From NCBI GenBank assembly GCA_028866275.1, contig JAGWIK010000009.1:8339-72338 (forward strand): a stretch of DNA of 64,000 bases, given 5' to 3'. Source of the stretch: Alphaproteobacteria bacterium (GTDB taxonomy: Bacteria > Pseudomonadota > Alphaproteobacteria > UBA9219). The notes under the pieces are model-generated. The model did not search any database. It saw only the letters and a program-made list of their open reading frames with translations, and was not told where the DNA came from. Below, piece after piece: positions 1-52,458 of the stretch; within the stretch, counting starts at the first letter, position 1; each line of letters starts with the position of its first letter. Made by a program: the position numbers and the translations under genes.

Positions 1-21
1 CCGTTTCTACCCCTCGGAGCC

Positions 22-366
22 TTGCTTGGCCTACAGCTCTATATGATGTCGCCTTTAAGCTGGGATGCTTTGTATGAGTGTTTGAAACTTGAGCTTTATA
101 TGCCGACAGTGCGCATTATGCTCTACGGGCTTTTCCCGGCTGCCATCGTGTTCTTTGTCATGGAAAAGGCCGCCCCCATACGTTGCTGCTGGGCGGGTAG
201 CATGGCCGCGCTGGCGGTCGCCTGTTTCGGCTATATCCTGCTGCGTCTGACCGATGGTATGGACGACCCCATGCGGGTGGCAATGTGGTATTTTATGCCG
301 GTGGGGCTGATGGCGGTGGTCGGCATGATGGCTGGCGGCATGACCCTGAAAAGGGTTTGGCGATAG
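22..366 (+). CDS. hypothetical polytopic membrane protein, possibly the 3' part of a gene that starts upstream of the window
   Basis: ORF track; hydrophobic Met-rich sequence; the frame is open from the window edge. Confidence 0.3.
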   Translation: MLGLQLYMMSPLSWDALYECLKLELYMPTVRIMLYGLFPAAIVFFVMEKAAPIRCCWAGSMAALAVACFGYILLRLTDGMDDPMRVAMWYFMPVGLMAVVGMMAGGMTLKRVWR

Positions 367-410
367 TCCCCTTTATTCTCTGCATTGCAATTGGCGCAGC
401 CCCATAATGA

Positions 411-968
411 ATGGAACAGTGGATGAAAACAGACATCATCGTGACGCAGTGGCTTAATTCCTTTGCCGGACAATCTGGTATCCTTGATTCTTTGATGATC
501 ATCCTAACCAGTTATGGAGTCGTTCTGCTGGTTGCGTTGATTGCAATGCGTTGGTGGTCAAAACGTGATCGACCAACTGTCCGCTATATGGCTATCTGTT
601 GCGGTATGGCCACGGCGTGCGGCCTCTTTTTAAACCAAATCATTCTTATCTTTCTTCATCGGATACGTCCCTATGATGCGGGGGTGACAAAGCTTCTTAT
701 TGACAAAAGCCACGACCCTTCGTTCCCATCCGATCATGCGACGGTGGTCTTTGCAATTGCCTTTTCGCTGTTACTTCAACGAGATCGCTACACTGGGTTT
801 TTCCTGGCATCTGGAGTCCTCATTGGCCTTTCCCGCATCTATGTTGGAACACACTATGTCTCCGACATTCTGGGTGGTGCATTGACCGCTACCGCCGCCA
901 CTTATCTGGTGGCGCGTCTGTACAAACAGGAATCACCACTTAACCGACTGCTTGTCAGGATATTATAG
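411..968 (+). CDS. PAP2 family phosphatase (undecaprenyl-diphosphatase-like)
   Basis: PAP2 motifs KxxxxxxRP, PSDH and SRIYVGTHYVSD; multiple TM helices. Confidence 0.8.
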   Translation: MEQWMKTDIIVTQWLNSFAGQSGILDSLMIILTSYGVVLLVALIAMRWWSKRDRPTVRYMAICCGMATACGLFLNQIILIFLHRIRPYDAGVTKLLIDKSHDPSFPSDHATVVFAIAFSLLLQRDRYTGFFLASGVLIGLSRIYVGTHYVSDILGGALTATAATYLVARLYKQESPLNRLLVRIL

Positions 969-1020
969 GGAGGGCGAAAATGTGCCCATCCTGTCTCTAA
1001 CGCCATAACACTAGCTCCAA

Positions 1021-1049
1021 TGTAACTTTTGCACGGCCTGAAGCGAATA
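1021..1049 (+). promoter_or_regulatory. ECF-sigma-like promoter motif copy 1 (TGTAAC-N17-CGAATA) upstream of mini-protein A
   Basis: TGTAAC at 1021-1026, 17-nt spacer, CGAATA at 1044-1049, about 60 nt before the ATG at 1110. Same architecture as the copies at 1276, 3396, 12074 and 19360. Confidence 0.5.
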
Positions 1050-1109
1050 GGTCGCATGATAAGCCATGCCTGAAGGCTGGCTTCGATAACCACAATCAGG
1101 AGAATTCTT

Positions 1110-1241
1110 ATGTCGCTCATGTGCAAAATGTCGAATAGCTGCTGTGCCACAAAAGGCATGTGCGTCCATGAAAAAATGATGATGATTATGGTGCTTATTG
1201 CCATGCCGGTGCTCGGACACTTCGTGTTGCGTTGGTTTTAG
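1110..1241 (+). CDS. unannotated 43-aa Cys-rich tail-anchored mini-protein A (MSLMCKMSNSCCATKGMCVHEKMMMIMVLIAMPVLGHFVLRWF)
   Basis: AGGAGA RBS 6 nt upstream of ATG. Four Cys in the N-terminal part, Met-rich C-terminal TM helix. Paralogous to the 51-aa ORF at 3486. Below the ORF-track length cutoff. Confidence 0.45.
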   Translation: MSLMCKMSNSCCATKGMCVHEKMMMIMVLIAMPVLGHFVLRWF

Positions 1242-1275
1242 GGCTGAGAAGGAATCTTTTGTGCGTGGAGTCCTA

Positions 1276-1304
1276 TGTAACTTTTCTGCAGGCTCCATCG
1301 AATA
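1276..1304 (+). promoter_or_regulatory. ECF-sigma-like promoter motif copy 2 upstream of the bufferin precursor gene
   Basis: TGTAAC at 1276-1281, N17, CGAATA at 1299-1304, 64 nt before the ATG at 1369. Confidence 0.5.
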
Positions 1305-1368
1305 GGGTGTCATGGTTCGACTTATCCCTGAGTTGTGACCTTTCATCAAACTAACCAAGGAGATCACG

Positions 1369-1734
1369 ATGAGTAAGATGCTTGAAAAGAACTATGGCTT
1401 AATCAACGCTGGCAAGAACGGCTGTCCGGGCAAACACCCCCATCCACAACCGTCAACTTCTACGGCGAGCAAGGCCGTCCTGTGCGCCGCGCTTGTTGGC
1501 CTGATGGCTGTTGGCGCTGCAGGCCAAGCCTTTGCCGCCGACAATGGCATGATGGCAGGCAAAGAAAAGTGCTACGGCATCGCCAAGGCTGGCAAGAACG
1601 ACTGCAAGTCCATGACCGGTTCGCACTCATGCGCTGGCATGTCCACCAAAGACAATGACCCCAACGACTTCAAGATGGTCAATACCGGCGAATGCGCCAA
1701 GGATGGCGGCACCATCGCGGCCCCCACGAAGTAA
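1369..1734 (+). CDS. bufA: bufferin-type RiPP precursor (DUF2282, BufA-like) with Sec signal peptide and an unusual ~30-aa N-terminal extension
   Basis: AGGAGA RBS. Core EKCYGIAKAGKNDCKS...HSCAG...GECAKDGG is typical of DUF2282. Hydrophobic h-region ends AFA/AD. Followed by DUF692, DUF2063 and DoxX. Confidence 0.7.
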   Translation: MSKMLEKNYGLINAGKNGCPGKHPHPQPSTSTASKAVLCAALVGLMAVGAAGQAFAADNGMMAGKEKCYGIAKAGKNDCKSMTGSHSCAGMSTKDNDPNDFKMVNTGECAKDGGTIAAPTK

Positions 1735-1791
1735 GAAGGCAACCGGGATACGGCCTCTGCGGAGGCCGTATCTTTTTCCTGCAGGGGAGTT

Positions 1792-2655
1792 TTGATGAGT
1801 AATCCATATCCCGATCTTGGTTTTGGCCTAGGCCTTCGTGCGCCTCATTATGAGCAGGTTTTACGCGAGAAACCCAAGGTCGATTTCTTCGAAATCATCT
1901 CCGAAAATTACATCGACGCGCATGAAGGCTATTGGGAGTATCTGGCCGATCTCCGCGCCCATTATCCGATGATCATGCATGGCGTGTCGATGAATATCGG
2001 CAGCGCCGATCCGTTCAACGACGACTATTTCCGTAAACTGAAAAAGCTGATTGACCATTTGCAACCGATCTGGGTGTCAGATCATCTGTGTTTTACAGGC
2101 CTCGGCGGCCACAACACGCATGACCTATTGCCGATCCCTTATGTTCAGGAGTCCTTGCAGCACGTTATTTCCCGTATTCATGAGGCGCAGGAAAAGCTAG
2201 GGCGGACGCTGGTGATCGAGAACCCATCGACCTATCTGGAGTTTCAAGCCTCGGATATTCCCGAATGGGAATTTCTGCGCGAAGTAGCGAAAGCGACTGG
2301 CTGCGGCGTCTTGCTCGACGTGAATAACGTCTATGTCAGCAGCTTCAATCACGGCTATGACCCGAAGCAATATATCGACGCCATCCCCGCCGATGCCATC
2401 GCCCAAATCCATCTGGCCGGACATTTGAATCTCGGCACGCACATCATCGACACGCATGACAATCATGTCATTGACGCGGTGTGGGATTTGTACGCTTACA
2501 CCGTTGCCAATAAAGGTTTGCACAGCACGATGATCGAGTGGGACGACAACATCCCCGCTTTTAATGTCCTTCTGGCTGAAATCAACAAGGCGCGCGATGT
2601 CGCCCTGCGTTCAACAACCAACGATGATGCCCATGTCTTACAACGCCGCGCTTAA
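1792..2655 (+). CDS. bufB: MNIO (DUF692) multinuclear non-heme iron oxidase, BufB-like
   Basis: N-terminus GLGLRAPHY... and overall DUF692/UPF0276 pattern; operon context with DUF2282 and DUF2063. Confidence 0.85.
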   Translation: MMSNPYPDLGFGLGLRAPHYEQVLREKPKVDFFEIISENYIDAHEGYWEYLADLRAHYPMIMHGVSMNIGSADPFNDDYFRKLKKLIDHLQPIWVSDHLCFTGLGGHNTHDLLPIPYVQESLQHVISRIHEAQEKLGRTLVIENPSTYLEFQASDIPEWEFLREVAKATGCGVLLDVNNVYVSSFNHGYDPKQYIDAIPADAIAQIHLAGHLNLGTHIIDTHDNHVIDAVWDLYAYTVANKGLHSTMIEWDDNIPAFNVLLAEINKARDVALRSTTNDDAHVLQRRA

Positions 2656-3400
2656 TCATTTACAGAGCAGCATTCTGCACGGCGATCCAGCCGAAGCCGC
2701 GTCGCTCGTGCGCCCGAAACCGCATTTGTCCGCCGAGAAGCAGTTGGGCGTTTACCTTGAAGGCTATCGGTTGCGACTTGTACAGGCTGTGCGCAATGAT
2801 TATCCCTGCCTTGGCCATTATCTCGGCGCAACGCGCATGAACGATCTGGTCGCGGCTTATGTGGAGGCGACACCTTCGTGCTCCTACAATCTCGATTTTT
2901 ATCCGTTCGGGTTTGGCGCGTTTGTCCGGCAGGCCAGTCAAGACCCGGCGGCACACGATCTCGCCGTACTAGAGCAGGCCATCGCCGAAATCTTCATGGC
3001 GCCTGACAGCAACCCACTGACCGCCGCCGTTTTTGCGCAGCTGGATCCGGAAACGCTGGGCAGTATGGTTTTCTACCCTCGCGCCGCGAACCGCCTGTTG
3101 CGCCTGACGCATGATGTCGAGCGCTACCTTGCGGCATGGAAGAAGGGCGAGCCGGAATTGACCATCGCTCCCGACAGGATTCACCTCTGTGTCTTGCGGC
3201 ACAACAACGAAGTGCAGCGGCATCGGCTGGAGCCGGAGGAATACCATCTGCTGGAAAATCTCGCGGCAGGACAAGTTTTTGGTCAGGCAATTGAGCCACC
3301 ACAGGCCAACCACCCACAAGACAGCGACCTTTTCGCCGCGAAGGTCATGAACTGGCTGCCGCGCTGGGTTGGAGAAGGTTTTTTCAAGCAGTCCATGTAA
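2624..3400 (+). CDS. bufC: DUF2063 MNIO partner protein, BufC-like (start uncertain, 2564-2633)
   Basis: Follows DUF692 with overlap; in-frame ATGs at 2624, 2627 and 2633 near the MNIO stop. Confidence 0.65.
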   Translation: MMPMSYNAALNHLQSSILHGDPAEAASLVRPKPHLSAEKQLGVYLEGYRLRLVQAVRNDYPCLGHYLGATRMNDLVAAYVEATPSCSYNLDFYPFGFGAFVRQASQDPAAHDLAVLEQAIAEIFMAPDSNPLTAAVFAQLDPETLGSMVFYPRAANRLLRLTHDVERYLAAWKKGEPELTIAPDRIHLCVLRHNNEVQRHRLEPEEYHLLENLAAGQVFGQAIEPPQANHPQDSDLFAAKVMNWLPRWVGEGFFKQSM

Positions 3401-3424
3401 CTTTCAGGCTTGTTCCCCCGAAGA
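3396..3424 (+). promoter_or_regulatory. ECF-sigma-like promoter motif copy 3 (TGTAAC-N17-CGAAGA) upstream of mini-protein B
   Basis: TGTAAC at 3396-3401, N17, CGAAGA at 3419-3424, 61 nt before the ATG at 3486; lies in the 3' end of bufC. Confidence 0.45.
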
Positions 3425-3485
3425 CGTTGGCAGAGACCAAAAACACCGTCCCATCGGGGCTAAACGTTATTTGCAGGAGGTTGTC

Positions 3486-3641
3486 ATGTCGGATTTATCC
3501 GAAAATCAAATCAAAGCTCAGGACGGCGAAAGCTGCGCAACCGGGGCCTGCGGCACCGGCATTTGCTCGCCCTGCACGATGATGAAGGTGATCATGATTG
3601 GCATGCTGGCCTTGGCTGGCTTCAAATATCTGGCGGGGTAA
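3486..3641 (+). CDS. 51-aa Cys-rich tail-anchored mini-protein B (MSDLSENQIKAQDGESCATGACGTGICSPCTMMKVIMIGMLALAGFKYLAG)
   Basis: Strong AGGAGG RBS 5 nt upstream of an internal ATG of ORF 3369..3641. Four Cys, then a Met-rich TM helix. Stop is 3 nt before DoxX. Paralogous to the 1110..1241 ORF. Confidence 0.5.
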   Translation: MSDLSENQIKAQDGESCATGACGTGICSPCTMMKVIMIGMLALAGFKYLAG

Positions 3642-3644
3642 GAA

Positions 3645-4127
3645 ATGACCAATCGGCAAACTCACGTGATCGAGAGCGGTTCAACATGCGGTACGATGTG
3701 CAAATGGATGGGGCAAGGCATGCGCGCCTATCTGGCTCTCACGAACTTTCTAAGTCCCTTGGTCTGGCTGGCGGCGCGGTTATGGATTGCGCGGGTGTTC
3801 TTCTATTCTGGATTGACCAAAATCCACGATTGGTCTTCGACGCTGTATCTTTTCGAGAACGAATACCATGTGCCGTTGCTGCCAATCCCTGTGGCGGCGT
3901 TCTCGGCGGCGCTGTTCGAATTAAGCTGTCCCGTGCTGCTCGTGCTGGGGTTCGGAACCCGTCTTGCCGCGCTGCCGCTACTGGCCATGACGGCGGTCAT
4001 CCAGTTCACCTATGACCAGAATATCGAGCATCTCTACTGGGCCTTGCTGCTCGGCCTCTTGCTGACCAACGGGCCGGGAAAACTGTCGGTCGATCATTGG
4101 GTGCGGCGGCGCTGGATGGGGCAATAA
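3645..4127 (+). CDS. bufD: DoxX family membrane protein (BufD-like)
   Basis: DoxX-like 4-TM pattern; operon position after DUF692/DUF2063. Confidence 0.7.
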   Translation: MTNRQTHVIESGSTCGTMCKWMGQGMRAYLALTNFLSPLVWLAARLWIARVFFYSGLTKIHDWSSTLYLFENEYHVPLLPIPVAAFSAALFELSCPVLLVLGFGTRLAALPLLAMTAVIQFTYDQNIEHLYWALLLGLLLTNGPGKLSVDHWVRRRWMGQ

Positions 4128-4128
4128 C

Positions 4129-4983
4129 ATGCCCCGCAACATCATCGATCTCGGCGAGCTTCATGACCGAATTGTCGTGTTTGGCGGTCCCTATAGCAAT
4201 CTTGAAGCGACCGAGGCTCTTCTAAAGACAGTTGACGATCTGGGCGTTCCGCGCAGCCATGTGCTGTGCACAGGCGATATGGTCGCGTATTGCGCCGATC
4301 CTGTCGAAGTGCTCGCCTTGTTGAGGTCGTCTGGGTTCGGCTTGCTGCTCAAGGGCAATTGCGAGGAAGCGCTGGCGAATAATGCGAAAGACTGCGGATG
4401 CGGCTTTGATGAAGGCTCGGCCTGTCATCGCCTGTCGAAGGATTGGTACAGCCACGCGGTGCAAAGCCTCGACGATGAAACAAAGCAATGGTTAGCGGGA
4501 TTGCCCGATCAGGCCGTATTCAACTTTGGGGGCAAGCGCTTCAGTGTCGTGCATGGCGGTGCCCGCCAGAATAATGCTTTCATTTTTGAAACGACGCCGC
4601 ATTCCGTTAAGCGTGAAGAAATAGAATTGGCCGGCAGTGACGCCGTTATCTGTGGCCACAGCGGCCTCTTTTTTACCGAAGTTTTTGGCGAGGCCTGTTG
4701 GCACAATGCCGGCGTTATCGGCATGCCTGCCAATGACGGAACGCCGCGCGTTTGGTACAGTGTCATCGATTCTATTCCTGAAGGCATCCGCTTTTCCCAT
4801 CTTCCTCTGGCTTACGACTTCAAAATAACCCAAGAGAAAATGCGTAAAGCAGGGTTGCCCGAAGGCTACGCTTCTGCCTTGGAGACGGGACTTTGGCCAT
4901 CGTGTGATGTTTTGACGGACGCAGAAAAGCAAAAATGCGGTGTAGAGGCGGTGCCGCGCCAGCACATTTGGAAAACGGTGTGA
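4129..4983 (+). CDS. calcineurin-like metallophosphoesterase
   Basis: VFGGPYSNLEA...GDMV and later GHSG motifs of metallophosphatases; 1-nt gap after DoxX. Confidence 0.55.
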   Translation: MPRNIIDLGELHDRIVVFGGPYSNLEATEALLKTVDDLGVPRSHVLCTGDMVAYCADPVEVLALLRSSGFGLLLKGNCEEALANNAKDCGCGFDEGSACHRLSKDWYSHAVQSLDDETKQWLAGLPDQAVFNFGGKRFSVVHGGARQNNAFIFETTPHSVKREEIELAGSDAVICGHSGLFFTEVFGEACWHNAGVIGMPANDGTPRVWYSVIDSIPEGIRFSHLPLAYDFKITQEKMRKAGLPEGYASALETGLWPSCDVLTDAEKQKCGVEAVPRQHIWKTV

Positions 4984-4998
4984 AGACAGTGCGGGGAA

Positions 4999-5676
4999 TT
5001 GATGAACAAATTTAACTTTAGTCAGCGTCTTATAAGCGAGCTACTCGGCACAGCTTTGTTGCTTGCTGTCGTTGTCGGTTCTGGAATCATGGGGGAGCGG
5101 CTGGCGGGTGGTAATGTTGCTCTTGCGCTGCTTGCCAATACTATTGCGACAGGCGCGGCGCTGGCGGTTCTTATCACAATCTTCGGGCCGATCTCCGGCG
5201 CGCATTTTAACCCCGCCGTGACCTTGGCTTTCTTTCTGAAGCGGGAAATAAATTGCCATACCGTTTTGGTCTATGTCGTAGCGCAGATTGCAGGCGGTGT
5301 GCTTGGCGTCTTTGCCGCGCACATGATGTTTGCCGAACCTGTTTTACAAATCTCGACAAAGCTACGGGACGGGTCGGCCTTGGCTTTTTCTGAATTTGTG
5401 GCGACATTCGGCCTCATGGCAACTATTCTCGGCACGGTACGTTTCAAGCCGGACTTTACGCCTGTTGCTGTTGGGCTTTATATCACCTCAGCCTATTGGT
5501 TTACGGCTTCGACCTCTTTTGCGAATCCCGCCGTGACGATTGCCCGATGCCTGTCTGATACATTCGCGGGAATTGCGCCGTCGTCCGCGCCCGTCTTTAT
5601 CGCGGCGCAGTTCCTGGGCGCGATCGTGGCTACCGCCGTGTTCGGCTGGTTGCTTAGAGAAAGGACTACCTCATGA
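4999..5676 (+). CDS. MIP family channel (aquaglyceroporin-like, possible arsenite channel)
   Basis: Two NPA boxes (HFNPAVT, FANPAVT); six TM helices. Confidence 0.85.
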   Translation: MMNKFNFSQRLISELLGTALLLAVVVGSGIMGERLAGGNVALALLANTIATGAALAVLITIFGPISGAHFNPAVTLAFFLKREINCHTVLVYVVAQIAGGVLGVFAAHMMFAEPVLQISTKLRDGSALAFSEFVATFGLMATILGTVRFKPDFTPVAVGLYITSAYWFTASTSFANPAVTIARCLSDTFAGIAPSSAPVFIAAQFLGAIVATAVFGWLLRERTTS

Positions 5677-6377
5677 CGGCGCGAACTGGACGCTTGCCGT
5701 TTGGCAGAATTATTGTCGTGGCGATCCTGCTGTCGCTGTTTGCGGCGGCATTCGCCTTCGACTTGCCGCATTACCTGACGCTTGATGCTTTGCGGGAACG
5801 GCAAATTGCGCTCAAAGCCTATCAAACGGCTCATCCATCGTTGGTCATAGCTGGGTTTTTTCTGATTTATGTTGCCGCGGCAGCGATGTCTTTCCCCGGT
5901 GCTACCGTGCTGACGTTACTGGGCGGCGCTTTGTTTGGTTTCTGGCAGGGACTTTTCGTGGTTTCTTTTGCCAGCACGATTGGGGCAACGCTGGCTTTTC
6001 TGTTGGCGCGGTATCTGTTGCGCGACTGGATTCAGAAGAAATATTACAAGCAACTTGCGATCCTGAATGCCGGATTTGAAAAGGAAGGCGCGTTTTACCT
6101 GTTCGCTTTGCGGCTCATGCCCGTATTCCCATTCTTTCTGGTCAATATCCTGACCAGCGTGATGCCGATCAAGACCCGCAGCTTCTACGGTGCAAGCCAG
6201 CTTGGCATGCTGCCGGGAACGGCGGTTTATGTTTATGCCGGGACGGAACTGGGTAAACTACAATCCGTGTCAGGTATCGCCTCACCATCGTTGATTGCTG
6301 CCTTTGTGTTGCTGGGGTTGTTTCCCTTGCTTGCTAAAAAAGGCATTTCTTATATTCGTAACCGGAGGCAAGCATGA
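5673..6377 (+). CDS. TVP38/TMEM64 (DedA/SNARE-associated) family membrane protein
   Basis: VTT-domain pattern; overlaps the neighbouring genes. Confidence 0.75.
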   Translation: MTARTGRLPFGRIIVVAILLSLFAAAFAFDLPHYLTLDALRERQIALKAYQTAHPSLVIAGFFLIYVAAAAMSFPGATVLTLLGGALFGFWQGLFVVSFASTIGATLAFLLARYLLRDWIQKKYYKQLAILNAGFEKEGAFYLFALRLMPVFPFFLVNILTSVMPIKTRSFYGASQLGMLPGTAVYVYAGTELGKLQSVSGIASPSLIAAFVLLGLFPLLAKKGISYIRNRRQA

Positions 6378-7813
6378 GCAAATACGACTATAACGTCATC
6401 GTTGTTGGCGCAGGGTCAGCCGGTTTGGTTTCCGCCTACATTGCCGCTACCGTGAAAGCTAAGGTTGCGCTGATTGAAAAGCATAAAATGGGCGGTGACT
6501 GCCTGAACACTGGATGCGTGCCCAGCAAGGCTTTGTTGCGTTCGGCTAAAATGCTGTCTTACGCCAAACGCGCCAAGGAATTCGGCTTTAACCGTACGGA
6601 AGTCGACTTTGACTTCGCCAAAGTGATGGAGCGCGTGCAGTCGGTGATCGCCTCCGTCGCGCCTCACGACTCGGTGGAACGCTATAGCCAACTGGGGGTC
6701 GCATGTATTTCCGGCGAAGCGCAAATTGTCGCGCCGCAAAAAGTGGAAGTGAATGGAAAGACGCTGACAGCGCGGAGCATCATTGTGGCGACGGGAGCAC
6801 GACCTTTGATTCCGCCAATTCCTGGGCTTGATCGGATAGACCATCTGACCAGCGACACGGTGTGGAATCTCCGCGAATTGCCGAAGCGTCTCGTTGTGCT
6901 TGGCGGCGGGCCGATTGGCGCGGAAATGGCGCAAGCTTTTGCGCGCCTTGGTTCCGACGTCACGATTGTCGAAATGGCTTCGCATCTTCTGGTGCGCGAA
7001 GACGCCGAGGTTATTGATCTGATCGCGCAACGTTTCCGCAACGAGGGCCTTACCGTTCTGACCGAACACAAGGCCAAGGCGTTCAGCAACAAGGATGGCC
7101 AGAAGGTTCTGACCTGCGAACACAATGGCAAGGATGTCGAAATTCCTTTCGATCAAATTATCGTCGCCCTAGGACGGCAGGCCAATATCAAGGGATTCGG
7201 CCTGGAGGAATTGGGCGTTAAACTCAGCCCGCGCAAAACCATCGAGGCCGACGCGTTTTTAGAAACCAACATCCCCAATCTTTATGTCTGCGGCGATGTG
7301 ACAGGACCATATCAGTTCACCCATACCGCCGCGCATCAGGCGTGGTACGCTTCCGTGAACGCGCTGTTCTCACCCTTCAAGCGTTTCAAGGTTGATTACG
7401 GCGTCATTCCATGGACGACCTTTACCGATCCGGAAGTCGCGCGTGTCGGCCTCAACGAGAAAGACGCCAAGGCGCAGAACATCCCCTACGAAGTCACGAC
7501 CTACGGCCTCGACGATCTTGACCGCGCCATCGCCGACAGCGAAGCACATGGCTTCGTGAAGGTTCTGACGGTTCAGGGCAAAGACAAAATTTTGGGTGTG
7601 ACCATTGTCGGAACACATGCCGGCGACATTATCCCTGAATTTATCCTTGCGATGAAGCACGGTTTGGGGCTGAACAAGATTCTTGGCACAATCCATATTT
7701 ATCCGACGCTTGGCGAGGCCAACAAATACGCGGCGGGCGCGTGGCGCAAAGCCCATGTTCCAGCCCTTGGATTAGCTGTTCTAAAAGTATTTCATGCATG
7801 GAGAAGGAATTAA
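6374..7813 (+). CDS. FAD-dependent pyridine nucleotide-disulfide oxidoreductase (mercuric reductase / dihydrolipoamide dehydrogenase-like, no NmerA and no C-terminal Cys pair)
   Basis: GAGSAG FAD motif; redox-active CLNTGCVPSK; dimerisation-domain C-terminus. Confidence 0.8.
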   Translation: MSKYDYNVIVVGAGSAGLVSAYIAATVKAKVALIEKHKMGGDCLNTGCVPSKALLRSAKMLSYAKRAKEFGFNRTEVDFDFAKVMERVQSVIASVAPHDSVERYSQLGVACISGEAQIVAPQKVEVNGKTLTARSIIVATGARPLIPPIPGLDRIDHLTSDTVWNLRELPKRLVVLGGGPIGAEMAQAFARLGSDVTIVEMASHLLVREDAEVIDLIAQRFRNEGLTVLTEHKAKAFSNKDGQKVLTCEHNGKDVEIPFDQIIVALGRQANIKGFGLEELGVKLSPRKTIEADAFLETNIPNLYVCGDVTGPYQFTHTAAHQAWYASVNALFSPFKRFKVDYGVIPWTTFTDPEVARVGLNEKDAKAQNIPYEVTTYGLDDLDRAIADSEAHGFVKVLTVQGKDKILGVTIVGTHAGDIIPEFILAMKHGLGLNKILGTIHIYPTLGEANKYAAGAWRKAHVPALGLAVLKVFHAWRRN

Positions 7814-7814
7814 A

Positions 7815-8786
7815 ATGGAAGGAAGCGCATTTATTGCCAGCTTCGGCAAAACGCTAAAAGACCACAACCTCACAATTGAGCGGAAAGCCGTAACGACTCT
7901 ACAAGTCAATATCGGCAAGCTGTGCAATCAGGCTTGCCACCATTGCCATGTCGAGGCGGGCCCCAAACGCACTGAAATCATGGAACGGCGCACCATCGAC
8001 CGTATTCTCGAACTTCTGGCAAACGAACCGCAGATAACGCTGGTGGATATTACCGGCGGTGCACCAGAACTCAATCCGCACTTCCGCGACTTTGTGAAAG
8101 TCCTTCGCAACATGGGTAAAGGCGTGATTGATCGCTGCAATCTTACCGTTCTGTTTGAAGAGGGACAGGAAGACACGGCTGAATTTCTTGCCCAACAGAA
8201 AGTGCAGATCGTCGCCTCGCTGCCCTGTTATCTGGAAGATAATGTTAACAAACAGCGCGGGCAAGGCGTATTCGGCAAAAGCATCGCTGCGCTGGAAAGA
8301 CTGAACGTCTTGGGGTATGGCCGCACGGGAAGCGGATTGGAAATCAATCTTGTTTACAACCCCGTCGGCACGCACCTTCCTCCAGCCCAAGAAAAACTCG
8401 AAGCCGATTATCGCCAGTATCTTTCAGAGAATTACGGCATTACCTTCAATCATCTCTTTACAATCACCAACATGCCGATCAAACGATTTGCCCATATGTT
8501 GGAACGTGATGGTTTTGCTGAGCAATACATGCAGCTTTTGATTGACAATTTTAACGTAGGTGCGGCTCGGCAAGTGATGTGTACGCAGCTTATTTCCATT
8601 GGCTGGGATGGCAAGCTGTATGATTGCGACTTTAACCAGATGCTTGGGATTCCGCTGAATTTCAAATCACGCACACTCTGGGACATTCCCTCGTTCGCGT
8701 CGCTGGATCGCGGTATTGCCTTCGCCGACCATTGCTTCGGATGCACGGCGGGCGCGGGAAGCTCGTGTACCGGTGCCTTGCTTTAA
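7815..8786 (+). CDS. arsS: arsenosugar biosynthesis radical SAM protein ArsS (Cys-containing, not Sec)
   Basis: CNQACHHCH radical-SAM motif; C-terminus CFGCTAGAGSSCTGALL; GGAGAAGG RBS before the ATG at 7815; adjacent to arsM. Confidence 0.8.
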   Translation: MEGSAFIASFGKTLKDHNLTIERKAVTTLQVNIGKLCNQACHHCHVEAGPKRTEIMERRTIDRILELLANEPQITLVDITGGAPELNPHFRDFVKVLRNMGKGVIDRCNLTVLFEEGQEDTAEFLAQQKVQIVASLPCYLEDNVNKQRGQGVFGKSIAALERLNVLGYGRTGSGLEINLVYNPVGTHLPPAQEKLEADYRQYLSENYGITFNHLFTITNMPIKRFAHMLERDGFAEQYMQLLIDNFNVGAARQVMCTQLISIGWDGKLYDCDFNQMLGIPLNFKSRTLWDIPSFASLDRGIAFADHCFGCTAGAGSSCTGALL

Positions 8787-8809
8787 CAATCCGCAACAGG
8801 AGATAAAAC

Positions 8810-9862
8810 ATGACTTCATCCGCCCAAGCCGTACAAAAAGACGTTCAGGAATATTACGGTGAAACACTGCAAAGCAGTGCCGATCTCAAGACCAGCGCCT
8901 GTTGTCCCATCGACAGCATGCCCGTACATTTGCAGCCTTATCTAAAAAAAGTCCACGCGGAAGTGCAGGAGAAATTTTACGGCTGCGGCTCGCCTATTCC
9001 CCAAGCACTGGAAGGCATGACGGTTCTTGATTTGGGGTGCGGCACAGGGCGTGATGTTTATGTTCTATCGCAATTAGTCGGAACAAAAGGCAAGGTGATC
9101 GGTGTGGATATGACCGAAGCGCAGCTCGCTGTTGCGAGGAAACATATCGCCTACCACACGGAAGCCTTTGGTTATCAGAAGCCGAATGTCGAATTTCACC
9201 ATGGCTATATCGAAAATCTCAAGACCATCGGCATTGCCGACACTTCGATTGATATCGTTGTGTCGAACTGCGTTATCAATCTTTCACCAGACAAAGAAGC
9301 TGTGTTCCGCGAGATTTTCCGCGTCCTGAAACCCGGCGGCGAGCTTTATTTCTCCGACGTCTTCACCGGACGGCGCGTGCCGAAAGCCCTGCAACACGAC
9401 AAGGAATTGCTGGGCGAATGCCTCGGCGGCGCGATGTATGTCGAGGATTTCCGGCGCATGTTGCGCAAGATCGGTTGCCTTGATTGCCGGATGATGAGTA
9501 AAGGACGCATTGCGCTCAACGAACCGTCTGTCGAACAGAAGGCCGGTATGATCGACTTTTATTCGATCACCGTTCGCGCCTTCAAATGCGACCTCGAAGA
9601 TATTTGTGAGGATTACGGCCACGTCGTCACTTACAAAGGCACGGTGGCCGAAGCGCCGCATGCCTTCCGGCTTGACGATCATCATCTGTTCAAGACAGGC
9701 ATGCCGGAACGCGTCTGCGGCAATACATGGAAAATGCTGATGGAAACGCGGTTTTCTCCGCACTTTTCTTCCATGGGGGATTTCTCGACCCACTACGGCG
9801 CGTTCGATTGCGCGCCAGCCACAGGAACGGAAAGCAACGCGCCCTCCGGCGCATGCTGCTAA
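8810..9862 (+). CDS. arsM: arsenite S-adenosylmethionine methyltransferase ArsM
   Basis: N-terminal YYGETLQSSADLKTSACCP conserved Cys pair; SAM-binding LDLGCGTG; additional Cys. Confidence 0.8.
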   Translation: MTSSAQAVQKDVQEYYGETLQSSADLKTSACCPIDSMPVHLQPYLKKVHAEVQEKFYGCGSPIPQALEGMTVLDLGCGTGRDVYVLSQLVGTKGKVIGVDMTEAQLAVARKHIAYHTEAFGYQKPNVEFHHGYIENLKTIGIADTSIDIVVSNCVINLSPDKEAVFREIFRVLKPGGELYFSDVFTGRRVPKALQHDKELLGECLGGAMYVEDFRRMLRKIGCLDCRMMSKGRIALNEPSVEQKAGMIDFYSITVRAFKCDLEDICEDYGHVVTYKGTVAEAPHAFRLDDHHLFKTGMPERVCGNTWKMLMETRFSPHFSSMGDFSTHYGAFDCAPATGTESNAPSGACC

Positions 9863-9880
9863 ATAACAACAAGAAGGAAT

Positions 9881-10732
9881 GTGAATATGCTTGGCATTAT
9901 CGGCGGAACCGGATTCTACAAACTCGAAGGGCTTGAGATCATCGAAGAGATGGATGTTTCCACTCCCTATGGCAAACCGTCGGCGCCTTTAGGCAAAGCA
10001 CGTTATGCCGGCAAGGAATTGTTTTTTCTGCCGCGCCACGGCGCGCATCATCAGTTCTTGCCGCATGAAGTCAATTACCGCGCGAATATCTATGCGTTGA
10101 AGCAAGCGGGGGTGCGGCAAATTGTCGGTTTCTCCGCCGTGGGCAGTTTGCGCGAGGAGATAGCACCGGGGGATCTTGCCATTCCCACGCAATATATAGA
10201 TTGGATTAAAGATGGTCGCATCAAGACTTTCTTTGGCAACGGCGTGACGGCGCATGTCTCGACAGCGGAACCCGTCTGCCCGAATCTTGTTAAGGGATTG
10301 GCCGAAGCGGCAGAGCGAATAAATGCAAAGCTTCACACCGGAAAAACATACATCTGCGTCGATGGCCCCCGCCTCGGCACGCGGGCGGAAAGCCATTTCT
10401 TCCGGCAAATCGGCGGCGATCTGGTCGGCATGACGAATGTGCCGGAGGTGTTTCTGGCGCGGGAAGCGCAGATAGCCTACGCGACAGTTGGTATCGCCAC
10501 CGATTACGATTGCTGGAAAGATAACCCCGCCGATCACGCCGACACCGCGACGATCATCGCGCGTTATGGCGCAAGCCTGCAAAAAGCCAACCTGCTGCTC
10601 AGAAACTTTCTTGAGCATGTTTTGCCGGAACCAAGCACGGCAAGCCGCGAGAGCCTGAAAGGTGCAGTGATGACGCCAGATCATGCGCTTTCGGCAAAGG
10701 CAAAAGAACTGCTGGCTGTGTTAAGAGCATGA
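9881..10732 (+). CDS. mtnP: S-methyl-5'-thioadenosine phosphorylase-like (PNP/MTAP family)
   Basis: IIGGTGFY N-terminus and GMTNVPE motif of MTAP. Confidence 0.8.
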   Translation: MNMLGIIGGTGFYKLEGLEIIEEMDVSTPYGKPSAPLGKARYAGKELFFLPRHGAHHQFLPHEVNYRANIYALKQAGVRQIVGFSAVGSLREEIAPGDLAIPTQYIDWIKDGRIKTFFGNGVTAHVSTAEPVCPNLVKGLAEAAERINAKLHTGKTYICVDGPRLGTRAESHFFRQIGGDLVGMTNVPEVFLAREAQIAYATVGIATDYDCWKDNPADHADTATIIARYGASLQKANLLLRNFLEHVLPEPSTASRESLKGAVMTPDHALSAKAKELLAVLRA

Positions 10733-11418
10733 AACTTTCGGTCATCATTCCGTTGGCTGAAGGCGAACAGGCTTGGCGCGATCTGCTGCCCGATCTTGCC
10801 GCCTTGCCTGCGGACAGCGAGGTTATCCTTGCGCTGCCGCAGGATGCCTCTCCACTCGATCTGCCGGCGATCCATTCCTCCCTCACCATACGGCAAGTGC
10901 GCGAAGGCTCCGGACGCGCCCGGCAGATGAACGCGGCGGCGCGCACAGCCCAAGGCGCTCAATTGTGGTTCCTTCACGCGGACTCCCGCCTGCATCCGGA
11001 GACGATACCTGCCTTGTTGCGCAGGCTGGGGGAATATCCCGACTGGCTGCTTTATGCCGATCTTGTCTTTTCCGCAGATGCGCCTTTCCTGATGAAGCTG
11101 AACGAAATGGGGGTTTGGTTTCGCTCCCATGCGCTTGGCATGCCCTTTGGCGATCAGGGGCTGTGCATCAGAAAAAAGACTTTCTATGAACTTGGCGGTT
11201 ACCCTGAAGATGTCGCGTATGGCGAAGACCATGTCTTCGTCTGGCGAGCGCGGCAGCGCGGCATCCGTCTGCGCCCTATGGGTGCACGCCTAACCACAAG
11301 CGCGCGCAAATACTGCGAGCGCGGCTGGCTGAAGACAACGCATTTGCATCTTTGTCTCACTCTGAGGCAGGCATGGCCGGAGTGGCGTAGACTTATGATG
11401 TCGGGTGATAAGGCATGA
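10729..11418 (+). CDS. family 2 glycosyltransferase associated with rSAM/ArsS clusters (TIGR04283-like)
   Basis: GT-A fold signature; position in the ars cluster. Confidence 0.6.
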   Translation: MKLSVIIPLAEGEQAWRDLLPDLAALPADSEVILALPQDASPLDLPAIHSSLTIRQVREGSGRARQMNAAARTAQGAQLWFLHADSRLHPETIPALLRRLGEYPDWLLYADLVFSADAPFLMKLNEMGVWFRSHALGMPFGDQGLCIRKKTFYELGGYPEDVAYGEDHVFVWRARQRGIRLRPMGARLTTSARKYCERGWLKTTHLHLCLTLRQAWPEWRRLMMSGDKA

Positions 11419-12122
11419 CCGGCGCGCTCGCCATCTTCGCTAAAACGCCTGGATTGTCGCCGGTTAAGACGCGACTTGCCACCGCTATCGGCGTTAAAAA
11501 GGCGGAAGAATTCTACCAGCATAGCGCCAAATGCGTCGAGGAACTCGCGCTTGATGCTTCGCGCATGAGCGAAGGCAGTCTTGTTCCTTACTGGGCGGTA
11601 GGCGAGCAAAACGGCCATGATCATCCTTTATGGATGAACATGAATCGTCTTTGGACTGGGCGTGGCGATTTAGGTGACCGGCTGCACCATGTTTACGCTA
11701 CGCTTCTGCAACAGCACGACCACGTTATCCTGATTGGCACCGACAGCCCCCAGCTTCCGGTTTCAGCCGTTCTAACCGCTCATGAGCATTTGAAGCGTAA
11801 AACCGGTCCTGTCATCGGCCCGGCGGATGACGGCGGTTACACTCTTTTCGGAGGGCATGTGCCCCTGCCACAGGCGTTATGGACGTCCGTGACCTACAGC
11901 GTCTCTACGACATGCGCAGATTTTGCAAAAAAGCTGAAGCCTTATGGCCCCATCCTGTTTCTTGAGCAAAGTTACGATATCGACATTCTGGACGATGTGA
12001 CAAAGCTACGAAACGATGAGGCCCGCATGATCGGCAAGGCTCAAAAAGCGCTGCTGGCATGGATTGAGCAGAATGTAACTTTCCGTGCGCATCCGGCGAA
12101 TGAGTACGAAGTCGTCGATTGA
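11415..12122 (+). CDS. DUF2064 / TIGR04282-like transferase associated with ArsS clusters
   Basis: N-terminal AIFAKTPGLSPVKTRL pattern; 4-nt overlaps with neighbours. Confidence 0.55.
   Translation: MTGALAIFAKTPGLSPVKTRLATAIGVKKAEEFYQHSAKCVEELALDASRMSEGSLVPYWAVGEQNGHDHPLWMNMNRLWTGRGDLGDRLHHVYATLLQQHDHVILIGTDSPQLPVSAVLTAHEHLKRKTGPVIGPADDGGYTLFGGHVPLPQALWTSVTYSVSTTCADFAKKLKPYGPILFLEQSYDIDILDDVTKLRNDEARMIGKAQKALLAWIEQNVTFRAHPANEYEVVD
12074..12102 (+). promoter_or_regulatory. ECF-sigma-like promoter motif copy 4 (TGTAAC-N17-CGAATG) internal to the array, upstream of DUF547-P450
   Basis: TGTAAC at 12074-12079, N17, CGAATG at 12097-12102, 34 nt before the ATG at 12137. Confidence 0.45.
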
Positions 12123-12136
12123 CCGGTGGAGTTTTT

Positions 12137-12889
12137 ATGAAAATCAGACTGATTACGTTTTTAACACTTTTGTTGGGCTTGTTTCTTACGGGCACGGCTC
12201 CGGCTTTGGCCTCCGACGACTACCTGACGCCTTATGACGGCTTGCTGGCGCAATATGTGAAGCCCGGCAACAAAGATGGCATTAACGCGGCGCTGGTCGA
12301 TTATCGCGGCTGGGCCAGAGATCCCCGGCATCTTCAGGCCATGGTGTCCTTGCAAAAGGCCAATCCGGAGACGCTTATCTCACGCGAAGAAAAAGCCTTC
12401 TGGATCAACGCTTACAATCTGCTGACCATCGATTTAATCATCCACCACCCCGACATTGCCAGCATCAAAGACCTCGGCAACTTATTGCAAAGTCCGTGGA
12501 AGGCCTATGACTGGAAGATTGGCGGCCACACTTATACGCTCGACGATATTGAGCAGAGGATTCTGCGCAAGCGCAACGATCCGCGCATTCACATGGCCAT
12601 TGTTTGCGCCTCGCTGTCTTGCCCCGATCTTCGTAATGAAGCCTATCGCGCAGATAAACTGGATGCTCAGCTTGACGATCAAGCCAGGAGGTTCCTGTCC
12701 AATCCCGCCAAGGGACTCAAAGTCATGCCTTCAGGCGTCATCCTGTCACCCATTCTGAAATGGTATGCGGAAGACTTTGGCGACGAAAAAGGCGTATTGG
12801 CTTTTGTTGCGCATTATGCCGTTGGTGTGCCGACCGGCGCAACCATTGATGATTATTTTACTTATAACTGGAATTTAAATCGTCCATGA
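12137..12889 (+). CDS. DUF547 domain secreted protein
   Basis: ATG at 12137 with GGTGGAG RBS; signal peptide MKIRLITFLTLLLGLFLTGTAPALA; the ORF-track start at 12119 is a TTG. Confidence 0.55.
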   Translation: MKIRLITFLTLLLGLFLTGTAPALASDDYLTPYDGLLAQYVKPGNKDGINAALVDYRGWARDPRHLQAMVSLQKANPETLISREEKAFWINAYNLLTIDLIIHHPDIASIKDLGNLLQSPWKAYDWKIGGHTYTLDDIEQRILRKRNDPRIHMAIVCASLSCPDLRNEAYRADKLDAQLDDQARRFLSNPAKGLKVMPSGVILSPILKWYAEDFGDEKGVLAFVAHYAVGVPTGATIDDYFTYNWNLNRP

Positions 12890-19431: not shown

Positions 19432-20007
19432 ATGACATATCCAGTTCACACAGAAACAACTGCACCCGAAAACGCGCGCGCCATTCTGGCGCAAGCGAAG
19501 GGAAAATTCGGCTTTATCCCTAATCTTTTGGGGACGATGGCCAACGCGCCGGCTTTACTCAAAAGCTATCTTACCCTGGCGCAAATATTTGAAGAGACTT
19601 CTCTAACTCCAACAGAACAGCAGATTGTTCTGTTGGCGGCCAGTTATTCGAACGGCTGCACCTATTGCATAGCAGCGCACACGGTCATTGCCGGGATGAA
19701 GAATGTGCCAGCCGAAGTCGTAGCTTCGCTACGGAACAATAAGCCGATCAAGGATGCAAAGCTCGAAGCCCTGCGTTTGTTTGCTTTTGATGTTACCGAA
19801 AAGCGTGGGCATCCTTCCGAAGAAAGCCTGAAACGTTTTCTGGCTGCCGGATATACACCAGTGCAAGTACTGGAAGTTGTTCTGGGCGTTGGCTTTAAAA
19901 CCTTGTCCAACTACACCAACCATCTGACAAAAACTCAGCTCGATTCCGCTTTTTCCAACGCAATCTGGACGGAAGCAAAGCAAGAATGCGCGTGTTGCTG
20001 CGCTTAG
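19432..20007 (+). CDS. carboxymuconolactone decarboxylase / AhpD-like protein with Cys-rich C-terminal tail (KQECACCCA)
   Basis: AhpD-core CxxC-type motif CTYCIAAH; C-terminal ECACCCA. Confidence 0.7.
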   Translation: MTYPVHTETTAPENARAILAQAKGKFGFIPNLLGTMANAPALLKSYLTLAQIFEETSLTPTEQQIVLLAASYSNGCTYCIAAHTVIAGMKNVPAEVVASLRNNKPIKDAKLEALRLFAFDVTEKRGHPSEESLKRFLAAGYTPVQVLEVVLGVGFKTLSNYTNHLTKTQLDSAFSNAIWTEAKQECACCCA

Positions 20008-20019
20008 GATGCCGGAGGG

Positions 20020-21742: not shown

Positions 21743-21771
21743 AATTATTCCTATTTGTTAGCCAGTTCTTA

Positions 21772-21802
21772 TCCTAAACCCTGCACCATGGTGCAGGATC
21801 AA
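21772..21802 (-). promoter_or_regulatory. MerR-type promoter/operator for merTP: -35 TTGATC, 19-bp spacer holding an 18-bp perfect palindrome CCTGCACCATGGTGCAGG (21780-21797), -10 TTAGGA
   Basis: Read directly on the minus strand; the long-spacer architecture with a dyad is the hallmark of MerR-regulated promoters. Confidence 0.55.
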
Positions 21803-21814
21803 GAGGGATTTTAC

Positions 21815-22213: not shown

Positions 22214-22332
22214 ATAAAGGGAGACAAAATGTGCAAGAAACTCGGCCCAAGCTTCCATGTTAAGCGATCGTAAAGCATGAAGGGGTAAAATCCTGACTTG
22301 TCCGAAAGGGTTAATGGGGTTACCCTAAGCGC

Positions 22333-22725: not shown

Positions 22726-22862
22726 ATCCCCACAATCGAACGCTGCGAATGCGTTGCCGTTCATTGAGTGATCGGTGCGCTTGTCCGTATGCGCTTCCTT
22801 GATGCTCGACCTTAAACATTGGTGGTCTGCTGGAAACAGATTGCCGCAAAAGGGGGATAACC

Positions 22863-52456: not shown

Positions 52457-52458
52457 CG

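Follow-up and report, generated by a model that had tools for sequence, protein, structure and literature searches.

A question raised by this locus is why a bufferin precursor should carry, ahead of its Sec signal peptide, a degenerate copy of the very segment that its maturation enzymes are expected to modify. The locus lies in a window of 64,000 nucleotides, which is the whole stretch of DNA that was analysed, and positions 1369-4127 hold a bufferin-1 operon encoding a DUF2282 precursor, a BufB-type MNIO, a DUF2063 partner and a DoxX protein (Table 1). The operon is directly 3' of nrsF and has a sigmaF-type promoter, GTAACT-N16-CGAA, in front of it. A bufABCD-type operon had been claimed in the preliminary description of this DNA, and the curated models of Pfam and NCBIfam agree with that claim for all four genes. 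The 121-aa BufA product matches DUF2282 (PF10048) well above threshold over residues 65-112 (E 5e-24, 84.5 bits, GA 22.4). An alignment of 40 sequences shows its four conserved Cys residues (C68, C79, C88 and C109) to be invariant, the spacing from CysI to CysII is 11 residues, and an AF2 model of the core built from that alignment has a pLDDT of 74-90, with strands at residues 65-69 and 100-105 and a helix at 108-111. A sequence search of the PDB returned no relatives of BufA or BufC, and the nearest solved structure to BufB is 3BWW. The start of bufC at 2633 was set by analogy with the 23-nt overlap in two related loci (L001 and L002), and the ATG codons at 2624 and 2627 are also possible.

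Table 1. Features of the bufferin-1 locus and its surroundings, in window coordinates.
Feature	Position	Strand	Description or basis
nrsF, 3' part, cut by window edge	1..366	+	anti-sigma factor of sigmaF; PF06532
sigmaF-type promoter motif 5' of orf43	1022..1047	+	GTAACT-N16-CGAA; pattern search
orf43	1110..1241	+	small Cys/His/Met-rich protein with C-terminal transmembrane segment (MSLMCKMSNSCCATKGMCVHEK...)
sigmaF-type promoter motif 5' of bufA	1277..1302	+	GTAACT-N16-CGAA; pattern search
Shine-Dalgarno AAGGAG	1357..1362	+	6 nt 5' of ATG 1369; read from sequence
bufA	1369..1734	+	DUF2282 bufferin-1 precursor, 121 aa; PF10048 match
pseudo-core M1-C19	1369..1425	+	degenerate copy of M61-C79; CysI replaced by Asn, CysII kept
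Pro/His-rich linker (PGKHPHPQPSTSTASK)	1426..1473	+	length varies among homologues (alignment)
h- and c-regions of predicted Sec signal peptide (AVLCAALVGLMAVGAAG QAFA)	1474..1536	+	hydropathy, charge count
duplication source M61-C79 (MMAGKEKCYGIAKAGKNDC)	1549..1605	+	CysI to CysII of mature peptide; repeat alignment
13-bp GC-rich hairpin with U-run between bufA and bufB	1745..1781	+	terminator- or attenuator-like
bufB	1795..2655	+	MNIO maturase; PF05114 E 7e-106; NF050167 MNIO_BufB
bufC	2633..3400	+	DUF2063 partner protein; PF09836 50.9 bits (GA 27.2)
internal sigmaF-type promoter motif	3397..3422	+	overlaps bufC stop codon; pattern search
orf51	3486..3641	+	small protein with cytoplasmic Cys cluster (CATGACGTGICSPC) and C-terminal transmembrane segment
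bufD	3645..4127	+	DoxX-family membrane protein; PF07681 67.4 bits (GA 23.6)

The order of DUF2282 precursor, MNIO, DUF2063 protein and DoxX protein is that of bufferin 1 of Caulobacter vibrioides (buf1ABCD, CCNA_03363-03366; PMC11626156), and the two systems also share the four conserved Cys, the CysI-CysII spacing of 11, a Sec-type signal peptide (predicted for the window precursor), a location next to sigF-nrsF and a GTAAC[CT]-N16-CGAA promoter. Unlike Buf1, the window has two extra small Cys-rich membrane ORFs, an internal sigmaF-type promoter motif before orf51-doxX, and a precursor whose 35-residue n-region holds the degenerate CysI-CysII copy. MNIO, DUF2063 and DoxX proteins and a Sec-exported Cys precursor are likewise found in the oxazolin/Hvf system of Haemophilus influenzae (HvfABCX) and in the fontiphorin and gonophorin "captophorins" (PMC11252979, PMC13097082), but the Hvf and captophorin precursors are built on EGKCG repeats whereas that of the window has a DUF2282 fold. 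The window BufB also differs from the Hvf enzymes in that it exceeds the cutoff of the NF050167 MNIO_BufB equivalog model (362.4 bits, cutoff 310) and is below that of the HvfB model (243.6 against 360), and BufD likewise scores under the cutoff of the NF050144 HvfX family equivalog (57 bits, cutoff 80). Apart from the precursor N-terminus, the operon is of the ordinary copper-stress bufferin type.

Control by sigmaF and NrsF was absent from the preliminary description. The ORF at 22-366 matches profile positions 120-203 of PF06532 NrsF (47.9 bits), and the truncated nrsF is collinear with the full sigF-nrsF pair of a related locus (L086). No sigF was found in the rest of the window, and, by comparison with L086, the gene presumably lies beyond the left edge of the window. 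A search of the window for the sigmaF-type pattern (consensus GTAACC-N16-CGAA; PMC3511200) gave five matches, all on the + strand, against 0.32 expected, and the motif preceding bufA also occurs in L001, L002, L005, L086 and non-extended alphaproteobacterial relatives. With this promoter motif and NrsF at 22-366, the operon would belong to a SigF/NrsF regulon; Buf1 is regulated by SigF (PMC11626156). The hairpin between bufA and bufB is predicted to be stable (MFE -27.8 kcal/mol, z -3.75) and has analogues 3' of bufA in L001 and L002. No riboswitch or leader RNA was detected, since an Rfam search over positions 1-8000 at E<=1 gave no matches.

How firmly is the unusual N-terminus of BufA established? 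By charge and hydropathy count, the n-region ahead of the h-region has 35 residues and a net charge of +4, and the stretch of about 30 residues that had been claimed at this place is real. Next come 17 uncharged residues and then QAFA|AD, where a cut after A56 is predicted from the same counts, a 35-residue n-region being atypical. The h- and c-regions are conserved with those of non-extended relatives, which start MNKSVLCAALVG, and the layout of the extended precursors is an n-region of 16-35 aa (charge +2 to +5), an uncharged h-region of 17-22 residues and then AxA. The remark that Sec substrates do not usually have so long an n-region was a fair one, though autotransporters provide a precedent for extended signal peptides (PMC2805444). 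Because AAGGAG precedes ATG 1369 and the frame has no ATG, GTG or TTG from M4 to M46, the start cannot be moved downstream past the extension; the downstream non-ATG start that had been considered as a way of removing the extension does not exist in this frame. The NCBI call (MDE1900969.1) begins at M4 and still includes the motif, and the extension has its own ATG start in L001, L002-L004, L005, L086 and P0006. On these features of the genes, translation of the extension appears secure. A Tat signal and a lipoprotein signal were also considered and rejected: inspection of residues 1-35 in all seven extended sequences turned up no RR pair, and C40 lies in the middle of the h-region within AVLCAAL, where positions -3 to -1 (A-V-L) do not fit a lipobox and AxA follows 14 residues later. 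AF2 is uninformative on the extension because residues 1-56 have a pLDDT of 45-50 (single chain, 40-sequence alignment).

The extension most resembles a part of the protein to which it is attached. M1-C19 aligns with M61-C79 in exact register (+60 codons) with identities at 10 of the 19 positions, and the DNA contains a 41-nt direct repeat (1384-1424 versus 1564-1604) that is 78% identical and, since its spacing is 180 nt, in frame. When the window extension was compared with the rest of the protein, one of 5000 shuffles scored as well. The best ungapped match of the extension was its own CysI-CysII segment in four proteins, with at most one shuffle as good (0-1 of 5000). DUF2282 was the sole Pfam family to which isolated extensions matched, in two of five cases and both times under threshold; the window's own isolated extension gave no DUF2282 match. 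The earlier proposal that the extension is a degenerate duplicate of the core motif is therefore borne out by an in-register repeat in both DNA and protein, and that of an internal duplication draws support from the repeat in the window gene together with the like result in four homologues. Extended genes have 216-288 nt between the promoter and the CysI codon; in relatives that lack the extension, the median is 171 nt. These comparisons identify the extension as a real insertion that arose by duplication; the copy is old. A recent gene conversion linking extension and core was rejected, as its own core is no better a match to the extension than are the cores of other genes, and so was recruitment of a pre-existing 5'UTR, as the promoter-to-core distance is 45-117 nt longer than in relatives.

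The motif of the extension, [NSD]-Y-G-[LI]-x3-G-x-N-x-C, is present in six other sequences from separate assemblies, so that the sample of extended precursors is n=7 in all, and the carriers are a handful of uncultured Alphaproteobacteria. The motif is kept in P0002, P0003, P0268 and L086, and P0006 has the C-terminal part only (KNGC).

By what mechanism might such a copy serve the precursor? The reading that we favour, tentatively, is that this sigmaF/NrsF-controlled bufferin-1 operon has a precursor whose extension is a leader-like or pseudo-substrate handle for BufBC. BufA would be synthesised in the cytoplasm, and BufB (MNIO) and BufC (DUF2063) would turn CysII (C79) and CysIII (C88) into 5-thiooxazoles, as happens to CysII and CysIII in Buf1 of C. 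vibrioides, the one bufferin for which this chemistry and Cu binding are known (PMC11626156). The Sec signal peptide would be cut after A56, and the 65-residue Cu-binding peptide would work in the periplasm. In the history of the gene, about 19 codons, from the mature start through CysII, were copied in frame ahead of the signal peptide, and an internal Met turned into the new start codon. The copy has lost CysI, which makes a structural disulfide, and retained the Y-G-[LI]...G-x-N-x-C skeleton around the enzyme-targeted Cys. Facing the cytoplasm as a long, positively charged n-region and later discarded with the signal peptide, this pseudo-core would supplement the leader as a tethered pseudo-substrate of BufB/BufC that raises local affinity or detains the precursor at the maturase, so that it would reach Sec fully modified. 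It is such a binding or hold-back function that we infer for the extension.

There is precedent for a leader role of this part of the precursor. In the Hvf system the signal sequence is needed for efficient modification: HvfA without it is poorly modified, and the signal peptide acts as a leader (bioRxiv 10.64898/2026.07.17.739211). That preprint cites Junger et al. 2026 for a leader role in bufferins. How premature export is avoided is a stated open question (PMC12452194). Like the leaders of classical RiPPs that are bound by RRE domains (e.g., MbnA-MbnBC), the extension is N-terminal, faces the cytoplasm, is cut off from the product and could guide the maturase; unlike them, it precedes a Sec signal peptide, duplicates the core itself and has a candidate binder only. 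DUF2063 partners carry an RRE-like domain (PMC12452194). The extension is dispensable in general, since thousands of bufferin precursors work without any, and most of the motif can be lost, since P0006 retains only its last residues.

An alternative, which we consider unlikely but the most serious of those weighed here, is that the extension is a tolerated relic of an old in-frame duplication in a weakly constrained n-region, where it adds positive charge, does no harm and has no specific partner. The n-regions of Sec signal peptides generally tolerate variation, and other bufferins do without the extension. It is confined to one 50%-identity cluster among 1.84 billion representatives, its motif is in none of 83 bufA genes (80 species-representative loci, full-length scan), and a pattern scan of 185,579 species-representative genomes found nothing. 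A profile search with the N-terminal region only returned five proteins, one of them a new member (P0268), and was not exhaustive, since P0001-P0003 are missing from its output. Across these searches, the extension comes out as very rare. A near-neutral linker (pooled pN/pS of 0.84 for residues 23-34) and the disappearance of most of the motif from P0006 would also be in keeping with a relic. However, the Y, G, [LI], G, N and C of the motif are invariant or nearly so in six sequences despite synonymous sites that are near saturation (pS ~0.7), and the conserved positions of the extension are those conserved across DUF2282, which is unexpected for a spacer that contributes only charge. The frame and the ATG start, moreover, are kept in every locus read. 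Pooled pN/pS is 0.44 for the motif (residues 6-22) and 0.28 for the core; the motif is under moderate constraint, less than the core and about as much as the signal peptide. Identity is seen at 16-18 of 22 sites in codon positions 1+2 but at 2-7 of 11 in position 3, and by this comparison the motif is evidently held at the amino-acid level and not at the DNA level.

It is improbable, in our estimate, that the extension is instead a third modification site, at which BufB would make a thiooxazole of C19, either so that the signal peptide, cleaved or not, carries a cytoplasm-facing Cu-binding group or to prime processive modification of the core. The preliminary description had also raised a second N-terminal modification site as an alternative to internal duplication. 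The local CysII context, G-K-N-x-C, is retained in the extension, and BufBC modify a Cys of such context in Buf1 (PMC11626156). The residues that flank Cys are little conserved for DUF2282-type MNIOs, which by implication make little demand on them (PMC13097082). Against this possibility, the Asp ahead of CysII has become Gly or Ser in the extension, and the product would be discarded with the signal peptide, with no obvious use. Three of the seven extensions (window, P0002 and L086) have Pro directly after this Cys, which is at least unusual. One of two general routes to a thiooxazole passes through an azetidinone by way of the deprotonated amide N-H C-terminal to Cys (PMC13097082), and Pro is without that N-H; the argument is weak because the other route does not need it.

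Of slightly lower probability again is an export-kinetics module, in which the long n-region slows or re-routes Sec targeting and so gives the maturase more time without contacting BufBC. The n-h-AxA architecture with its long charged n-region would suit such a role, and it is explicitly acknowledged that export must not come too early (PMC12452194). Long conserved extensions of signal peptides also have precedent in the ESPR of autotransporter and two-partner-secretion proteins, which likewise stands before a normal n-h-c Sec signal peptide (PMC2805444). The resemblance is architectural only: the window's cargo is a 65-residue RiPP instead of a passenger of type V, and while the window extension is copied from its own cargo, the ESPR has no such origin. 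To our knowledge, the extension has no sequence similarity to the ESPR motif, and a Pfam scan of the isolated extensions gave only DUF2282. A module of this kind would, in addition, leave the mimicry of CysI-CysII by the extension unexplained.

The most doubtful of the functional readings is a two-in-one substrate, in which C19 would also become a thiooxazole and the 56-residue signal peptide would serve as a membrane-tethered, cytoplasm-facing Cu(I) ligand or release a small cytoplasmic metallophore on degradation; in a related version, occupancy of BufBC by the pseudo-core would be a checkpoint that licenses Sec export after core modification. If the two-in-one reading is true, one gene would give both a periplasmic and a cytoplasmic copper buffer. 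An annotation artefact, with the true start downstream and the extension an untranslated 5' leader, is largely refuted and very improbable: an in-frame GTG would give a canonical MNKAVLCAAL start in L005 alone and NCBI picked M4 and not M1 in the window, but the window, L001 and L002 have no ATG, GTG or TTG after the motif until midway through the h-region, the upstream ATG has a good Shine-Dalgarno sequence in the window, L002 and L005 (a weaker purine-rich one in L001 and L086), and the frame survives linker indels with conservation that is protein-level and not DNA-level.

Two small genes that were absent from the preliminary description, orf43 (43 aa, upstream of bufA) and orf51 (51 aa, between bufC and doxX), each lie behind a sigmaF-type promoter motif of their own. 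orf43 has an AGGAG Shine-Dalgarno site, and its homologues adjoin buf operons in L007 (56% identity), L038 and L086. It had no match in NCBIfam and none above threshold in Pfam, where the one sub-threshold match was to PF17492, a spider-toxin family (19.9 bits versus 27). orf51, annotated by NCBI as hypothetical protein KGI37_04915, has a GGAGG Shine-Dalgarno site and one homologue (P0270/L009), near a buf operon, and matched nothing in Pfam or NCBIfam.

Bufferins and related MNIO products stand out among RiPPs in being exported by the general Sec pathway, and two questions are currently open in the field: how the precursor is recognised by BufB and BufC, and how export is held back until the precursor is fully modified (PMC12452194). 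That the signal peptide doubles as a leader has been reported only recently, and here a copy of the enzyme's target segment has been added to that leader. An N-terminal addition that is conserved and derives from the part that the enzyme modifies may be a natural handle on substrate recognition before export. Closely related BufB/BufC pairs with 71-75% identity serve precursors with and without the extension, and such pairs are ready-made natural controls; the L007-type BufBC, at 71% identity, naturally partners a non-extended precursor. If the extension does nothing, it would be a small lesson in how much an n-region tolerates. If it binds BufBC, it would define a minimal recognition motif and would show that a RiPP leader can arise by duplication from its own core.

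The four plus-strand genes that the preliminary description had placed at 1369-4127 were recovered by ORF calling and domain matching (see table), and the profile check that it proposed for the 121-aa product matched DUF2282. The maturase scored above the curated NCBI BufB equivalog cutoff (362 versus 310 bits) and passed none of the HvfB, MbnB, ApyH and ChrH equivalogs. An AF2 model of the precursor from a 40-sequence alignment (pLDDT 74-90 over the mature domain) has strands at residues 65-69 and 100-105 and a short helix at 108-111, which is the fold of two strands and a short helix described for Buf1 (PMC11626156). Thus, the operon belongs to the known bufferin-1 (Buf1) kind and is ordinary in that respect, and the novelty is the N-terminal extension on its precursor, a feature of DUF2282 precursors of which no mention was found in the literature searched.

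Features of the window and of related loci (L-numbers)
Feature	Locus	Position	Strand	Details
nrsF (anti-sigma factor), cut by window start	window	22-366		PF06532 positions 120-203
orf43	window	1110-1241		strong Shine-Dalgarno; own sigmaF-type promoter motif at 1022-1047
bufA (precursor)	window	1369-1734	+	121 aa; DUF2282 (PF10048), E 5e-24, residues 65-112
bufB (MNIO family)	window	1795-2655	+	PF05114, E 7e-106
bufC	window	2633-3400	+	DUF2063, 50.9 bits
orf51	window	3486-3641		51 aa; between bufC and doxX; GGAGG Shine-Dalgarno
bufD (DoxX protein)	window	3645-4127	+	67.4 bits
Co-oriented genes directly downstream of doxX	window	4129-14373		metallophosphoesterase, MIP channel, VTT/DedA protein, MerA-like FAD disulfide oxidoreductase, ArsS (TIGR04167, 447 bits versus cutoff 300), arsenite-methyltransferase-like protein, PNP-family phosphorylase, GT2, DUF2064, DUF547, P450
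Efflux genes	window	21755-28557		MerR-family regulator, then CusB/HlyD-type membrane fusion protein, RND pump (803 bits to ACR_tran), outer-membrane factor
DUF3489 and DUF6362 proteins	window	about 52400-58800	-	among many ORFs without Pfam matches
orf43 homologue	L007	8036-8164
orf43 homologue	L038	near 5723-5842	-
orf43 homologue	L086	1400-1534
Genes at the orf51 position	L007	8036-9065		orf43 homologue, MerT (116 bits), MerP-like HMA protein, 80-aa GDCC-motif Cys-rich protein
Gene at the orf51 position	L001	2302-2592		periplasmic HMA protein, CxxC motif degenerate

The full order sigF-nrsF-orf43-bufA is seen in L086, a closely related metagenome contig. Five plus-strand sites in the window (1022, 1277, 3397, 12075 and 19361) read GTAACT-N16-CGAA, the reference being the experimentally defined Caulobacter sigmaF-binding sequence GTAACC-N16-CGAA (PMC3511200); 0.32 were expected, and five were reached in 0 of 100 shuffles. 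The bufA ATG has one such site 66 nt upstream, and the motif also precedes bufA in L001, L002, L005, L086 and non-extended alphaproteobacterial relatives. Site 12075 is upstream of a DUF547 protein/P450 (12119-14373) and site 19361 upstream of an AhpD-like CMD protein and MgtC (19432-20721), and the five-site excess, with these two included, suggests that the sigmaF regulon of this genome is larger. A GC-rich 13-bp hairpin with a trailing U-run stands between bufA and bufB (-27.8 kcal/mol, z -3.75), with structurally equivalent hairpins of different sequence in L001 and L002; it may be a leaky terminator that sets the precursor:enzyme ratio.

The small ORFs orf43 and orf51 are part of the locus and both encode an N-terminal Cys cluster (CATGACGTGICSPC in orf51) and a C-terminal transmembrane segment, and the sigmaF-type motif ahead of orf51 (3397-3422) overlaps the bufC stop codon. 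The orf43 family is conserved (41-44 aa, MS[LM]MCK..C..G.C[IV]HEK and then the transmembrane segment), with no Pfam match above threshold and no NCBIfam match. It adjoins buf operons in the window, L007, L038 and L086, upstream of bufA in all except L007, where it lies between bufC and a MerT/MerP-like pair. The product of orf51, a hypothetical protein in the NCBI annotation, has a single detectable homologue (P0270), encoded near the buf operon of a Rickettsiales MAG (L009), ~1.8 kb upstream of bufA on the opposite strand; in the relatives L007 and L001 the place of orf51 is taken by other small metal-handling genes. Farther along the window, the run downstream of doxX resembles a cluster for arsenosugars or organoarsenicals beside the copper system, the RND genes probably form a heavy-metal efflux system, which reinforces the metal-stress theme of the region, and the minus-strand segment may be mobile or phage-derived.

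The long extension claimed in the preliminary description lies within the translated ORF and gives an n-region of 35 residues with a net charge of +4, after which come 17 uncharged residues and QAFA/AD. An AAGGAG Shine-Dalgarno stands 6 nt before the ATG at 1369; the next ATG, M4, is the start chosen by NCBI (MDE1900969.1) and keeps the motif inside. No in-frame ATG, GTG or TTG occurs between codons 4 and 46, the latter already mid-hydrophobic region, and every extended gene whose DNA was read begins with an ATG of its own, with a Shine-Dalgarno that is clear in L002 and L005 and weaker but purine-rich in L001 and L086; a mis-called start, with a downstream non-ATG codon removing the extension, is hardly credible. 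In L086, a perfect 24-nt tandem duplication (1648-1695, two copies of AACAATCATAAAGAGATCACCATG) covers the Shine-Dalgarno and the start of the extended bufA and yields a second in-frame ATG further upstream.

The extension is present in six further sequences from other assemblies (n=7 with the window): P0002 (L001), P0003 (L002-L004), P0268 (L005), the L086 gene and P0006, which retains just the KNGC end of the motif. The accession numbers of P0006 (MDE1901275.1) and of the window protein lie close together, so the same MAG probably carries P0006 on a different contig, as a second bufA paralogue whose extension is shortened (MATAEKNGCGKK...). The common motif, [NSD]-Y-G-[LI]-x3-G-x-N-x-C, is followed by basic residues and a linker that is Pro-rich in three sequences and of a short GKK type in three. 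Nei-Gojobori counts over four extended genes gave pN/pS of 0.44 for the motif (pS 0.70), 0.84 for the linker, 0.48 for the signal-peptide h/c region and 0.28 for the core, and the motif is therefore kept at the protein level, to roughly the same degree as the signal peptide.

The internal duplication suggested earlier is borne out by an in-frame direct repeat of 41 nt (78% identity, spacing exactly 180 nt) and by 10 identities in 19 positions when M1-C19 is set in register with M61-C79, the CysI-CysII segment of the core. When the window extension was shuffled 5000 times, just one shuffle found an equally good match anywhere in the protein; P0002, P0003 and P0268 each have their best ungapped match at their own CysI-CysII segment, ending at CysII, a score reached by 0 of 5000 shuffles. 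In the window protein, P0003 and P0268, the initiator Met aligns with a Met where the mature peptide begins. When extensions were searched in isolation against all Pfam, those of P0003 and P0268 matched DUF2282 only (E 0.025 and 0.0019, both below the threshold of the family, profile positions 5-21), and that of the window has no match. In place of CysI the extension has Asn, Ser or Asp; it has kept the CysII position, its G-x-N-x-C context and the Y-G-[LI] strand, which are positions conserved across DUF2282. The promoter CGAA is 216-288 nt from the CysI codon in extended genes, whereas the median for eleven relatives that lack the extension is 171 nt; extra sequence was inserted, and the frame has not just run on into an existing 5'UTR. 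The extensions do not resemble their own cores more than those of other genes, and the similarity resides in codon positions 1 and 2 (16-18/22, versus 2-7/11 at position 3); on these comparisons the duplication is old, and upkeep by recent gene conversion was rejected.

A profile of the four full-length extended precursors, run against 1.84 billion cluster representatives, gave 1356 matches, among which P0002 alone (185 bits) covered profile positions 1-20; the next match (113 bits) begins at position 21. Those of the longer matches that were inspected had over-called starts and lacked the motif. Of the 83 bufA genes at the best 80 loci in a collection of 185,579 species-representative genomes, 0 have the motif; scanning those genomes directly with the pattern also gave no extension, and a JGI metagenome scan found one extended gene, that of L086. 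The window BufB is closest to those of other extended loci (75% for L002, 73% for L001), with that of L007 nearly as close (71%) beside a non-extended precursor starting MNKTVLCAAL. This fits an extension that arose once, within one small clade of uncultured Alphaproteobacteria.

What role might the extension have? In C. vibrioides Buf1, CysII and CysIII become 5-thiooxazoles and CysI and CysIV form a disulfide (PMC11626156). The signal peptide is reported to be the leader, according to a citation in bioRxiv 10.64898/2026.07.17.739211, and the authors of an MNIO landscape study hold that some mechanism must block export before modification (PMC12452194). Since the remainder of the fold is missing from the extension, which would be cleaved off along with the signal peptide, conservation of its motif cannot serve the mature structure and would point to the cytoplasmic machinery. 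Given the kept CysII context, the leader role of the signal peptide and the need to block early export, we tentatively favor a tethered pseudo-substrate or added leader element for BufBC that would raise or prolong engagement of the precursor with these proteins. A relic that is simply tolerated is a less likely explanation. It is doubtful that the extension Cys is a true third modification site; the Cys-Pro context in 3 of 7 sequences weighs weakly against it, and only if the azetidinone route applies, which needs an amide N-H on the C-terminal side of Cys (PMC13097082). An export timer independent of BufBC, like the extended signal peptide region (ESPR) of autotransporters (PMC2805444), is improbable; that likeness is architectural, whereas the likeness proposed to RiPP leaders is functional, and in contrast to both the extension derives from the precursor's own core. 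The extension does not amount to a new system, but it is a natural experiment on a question still open in the field.
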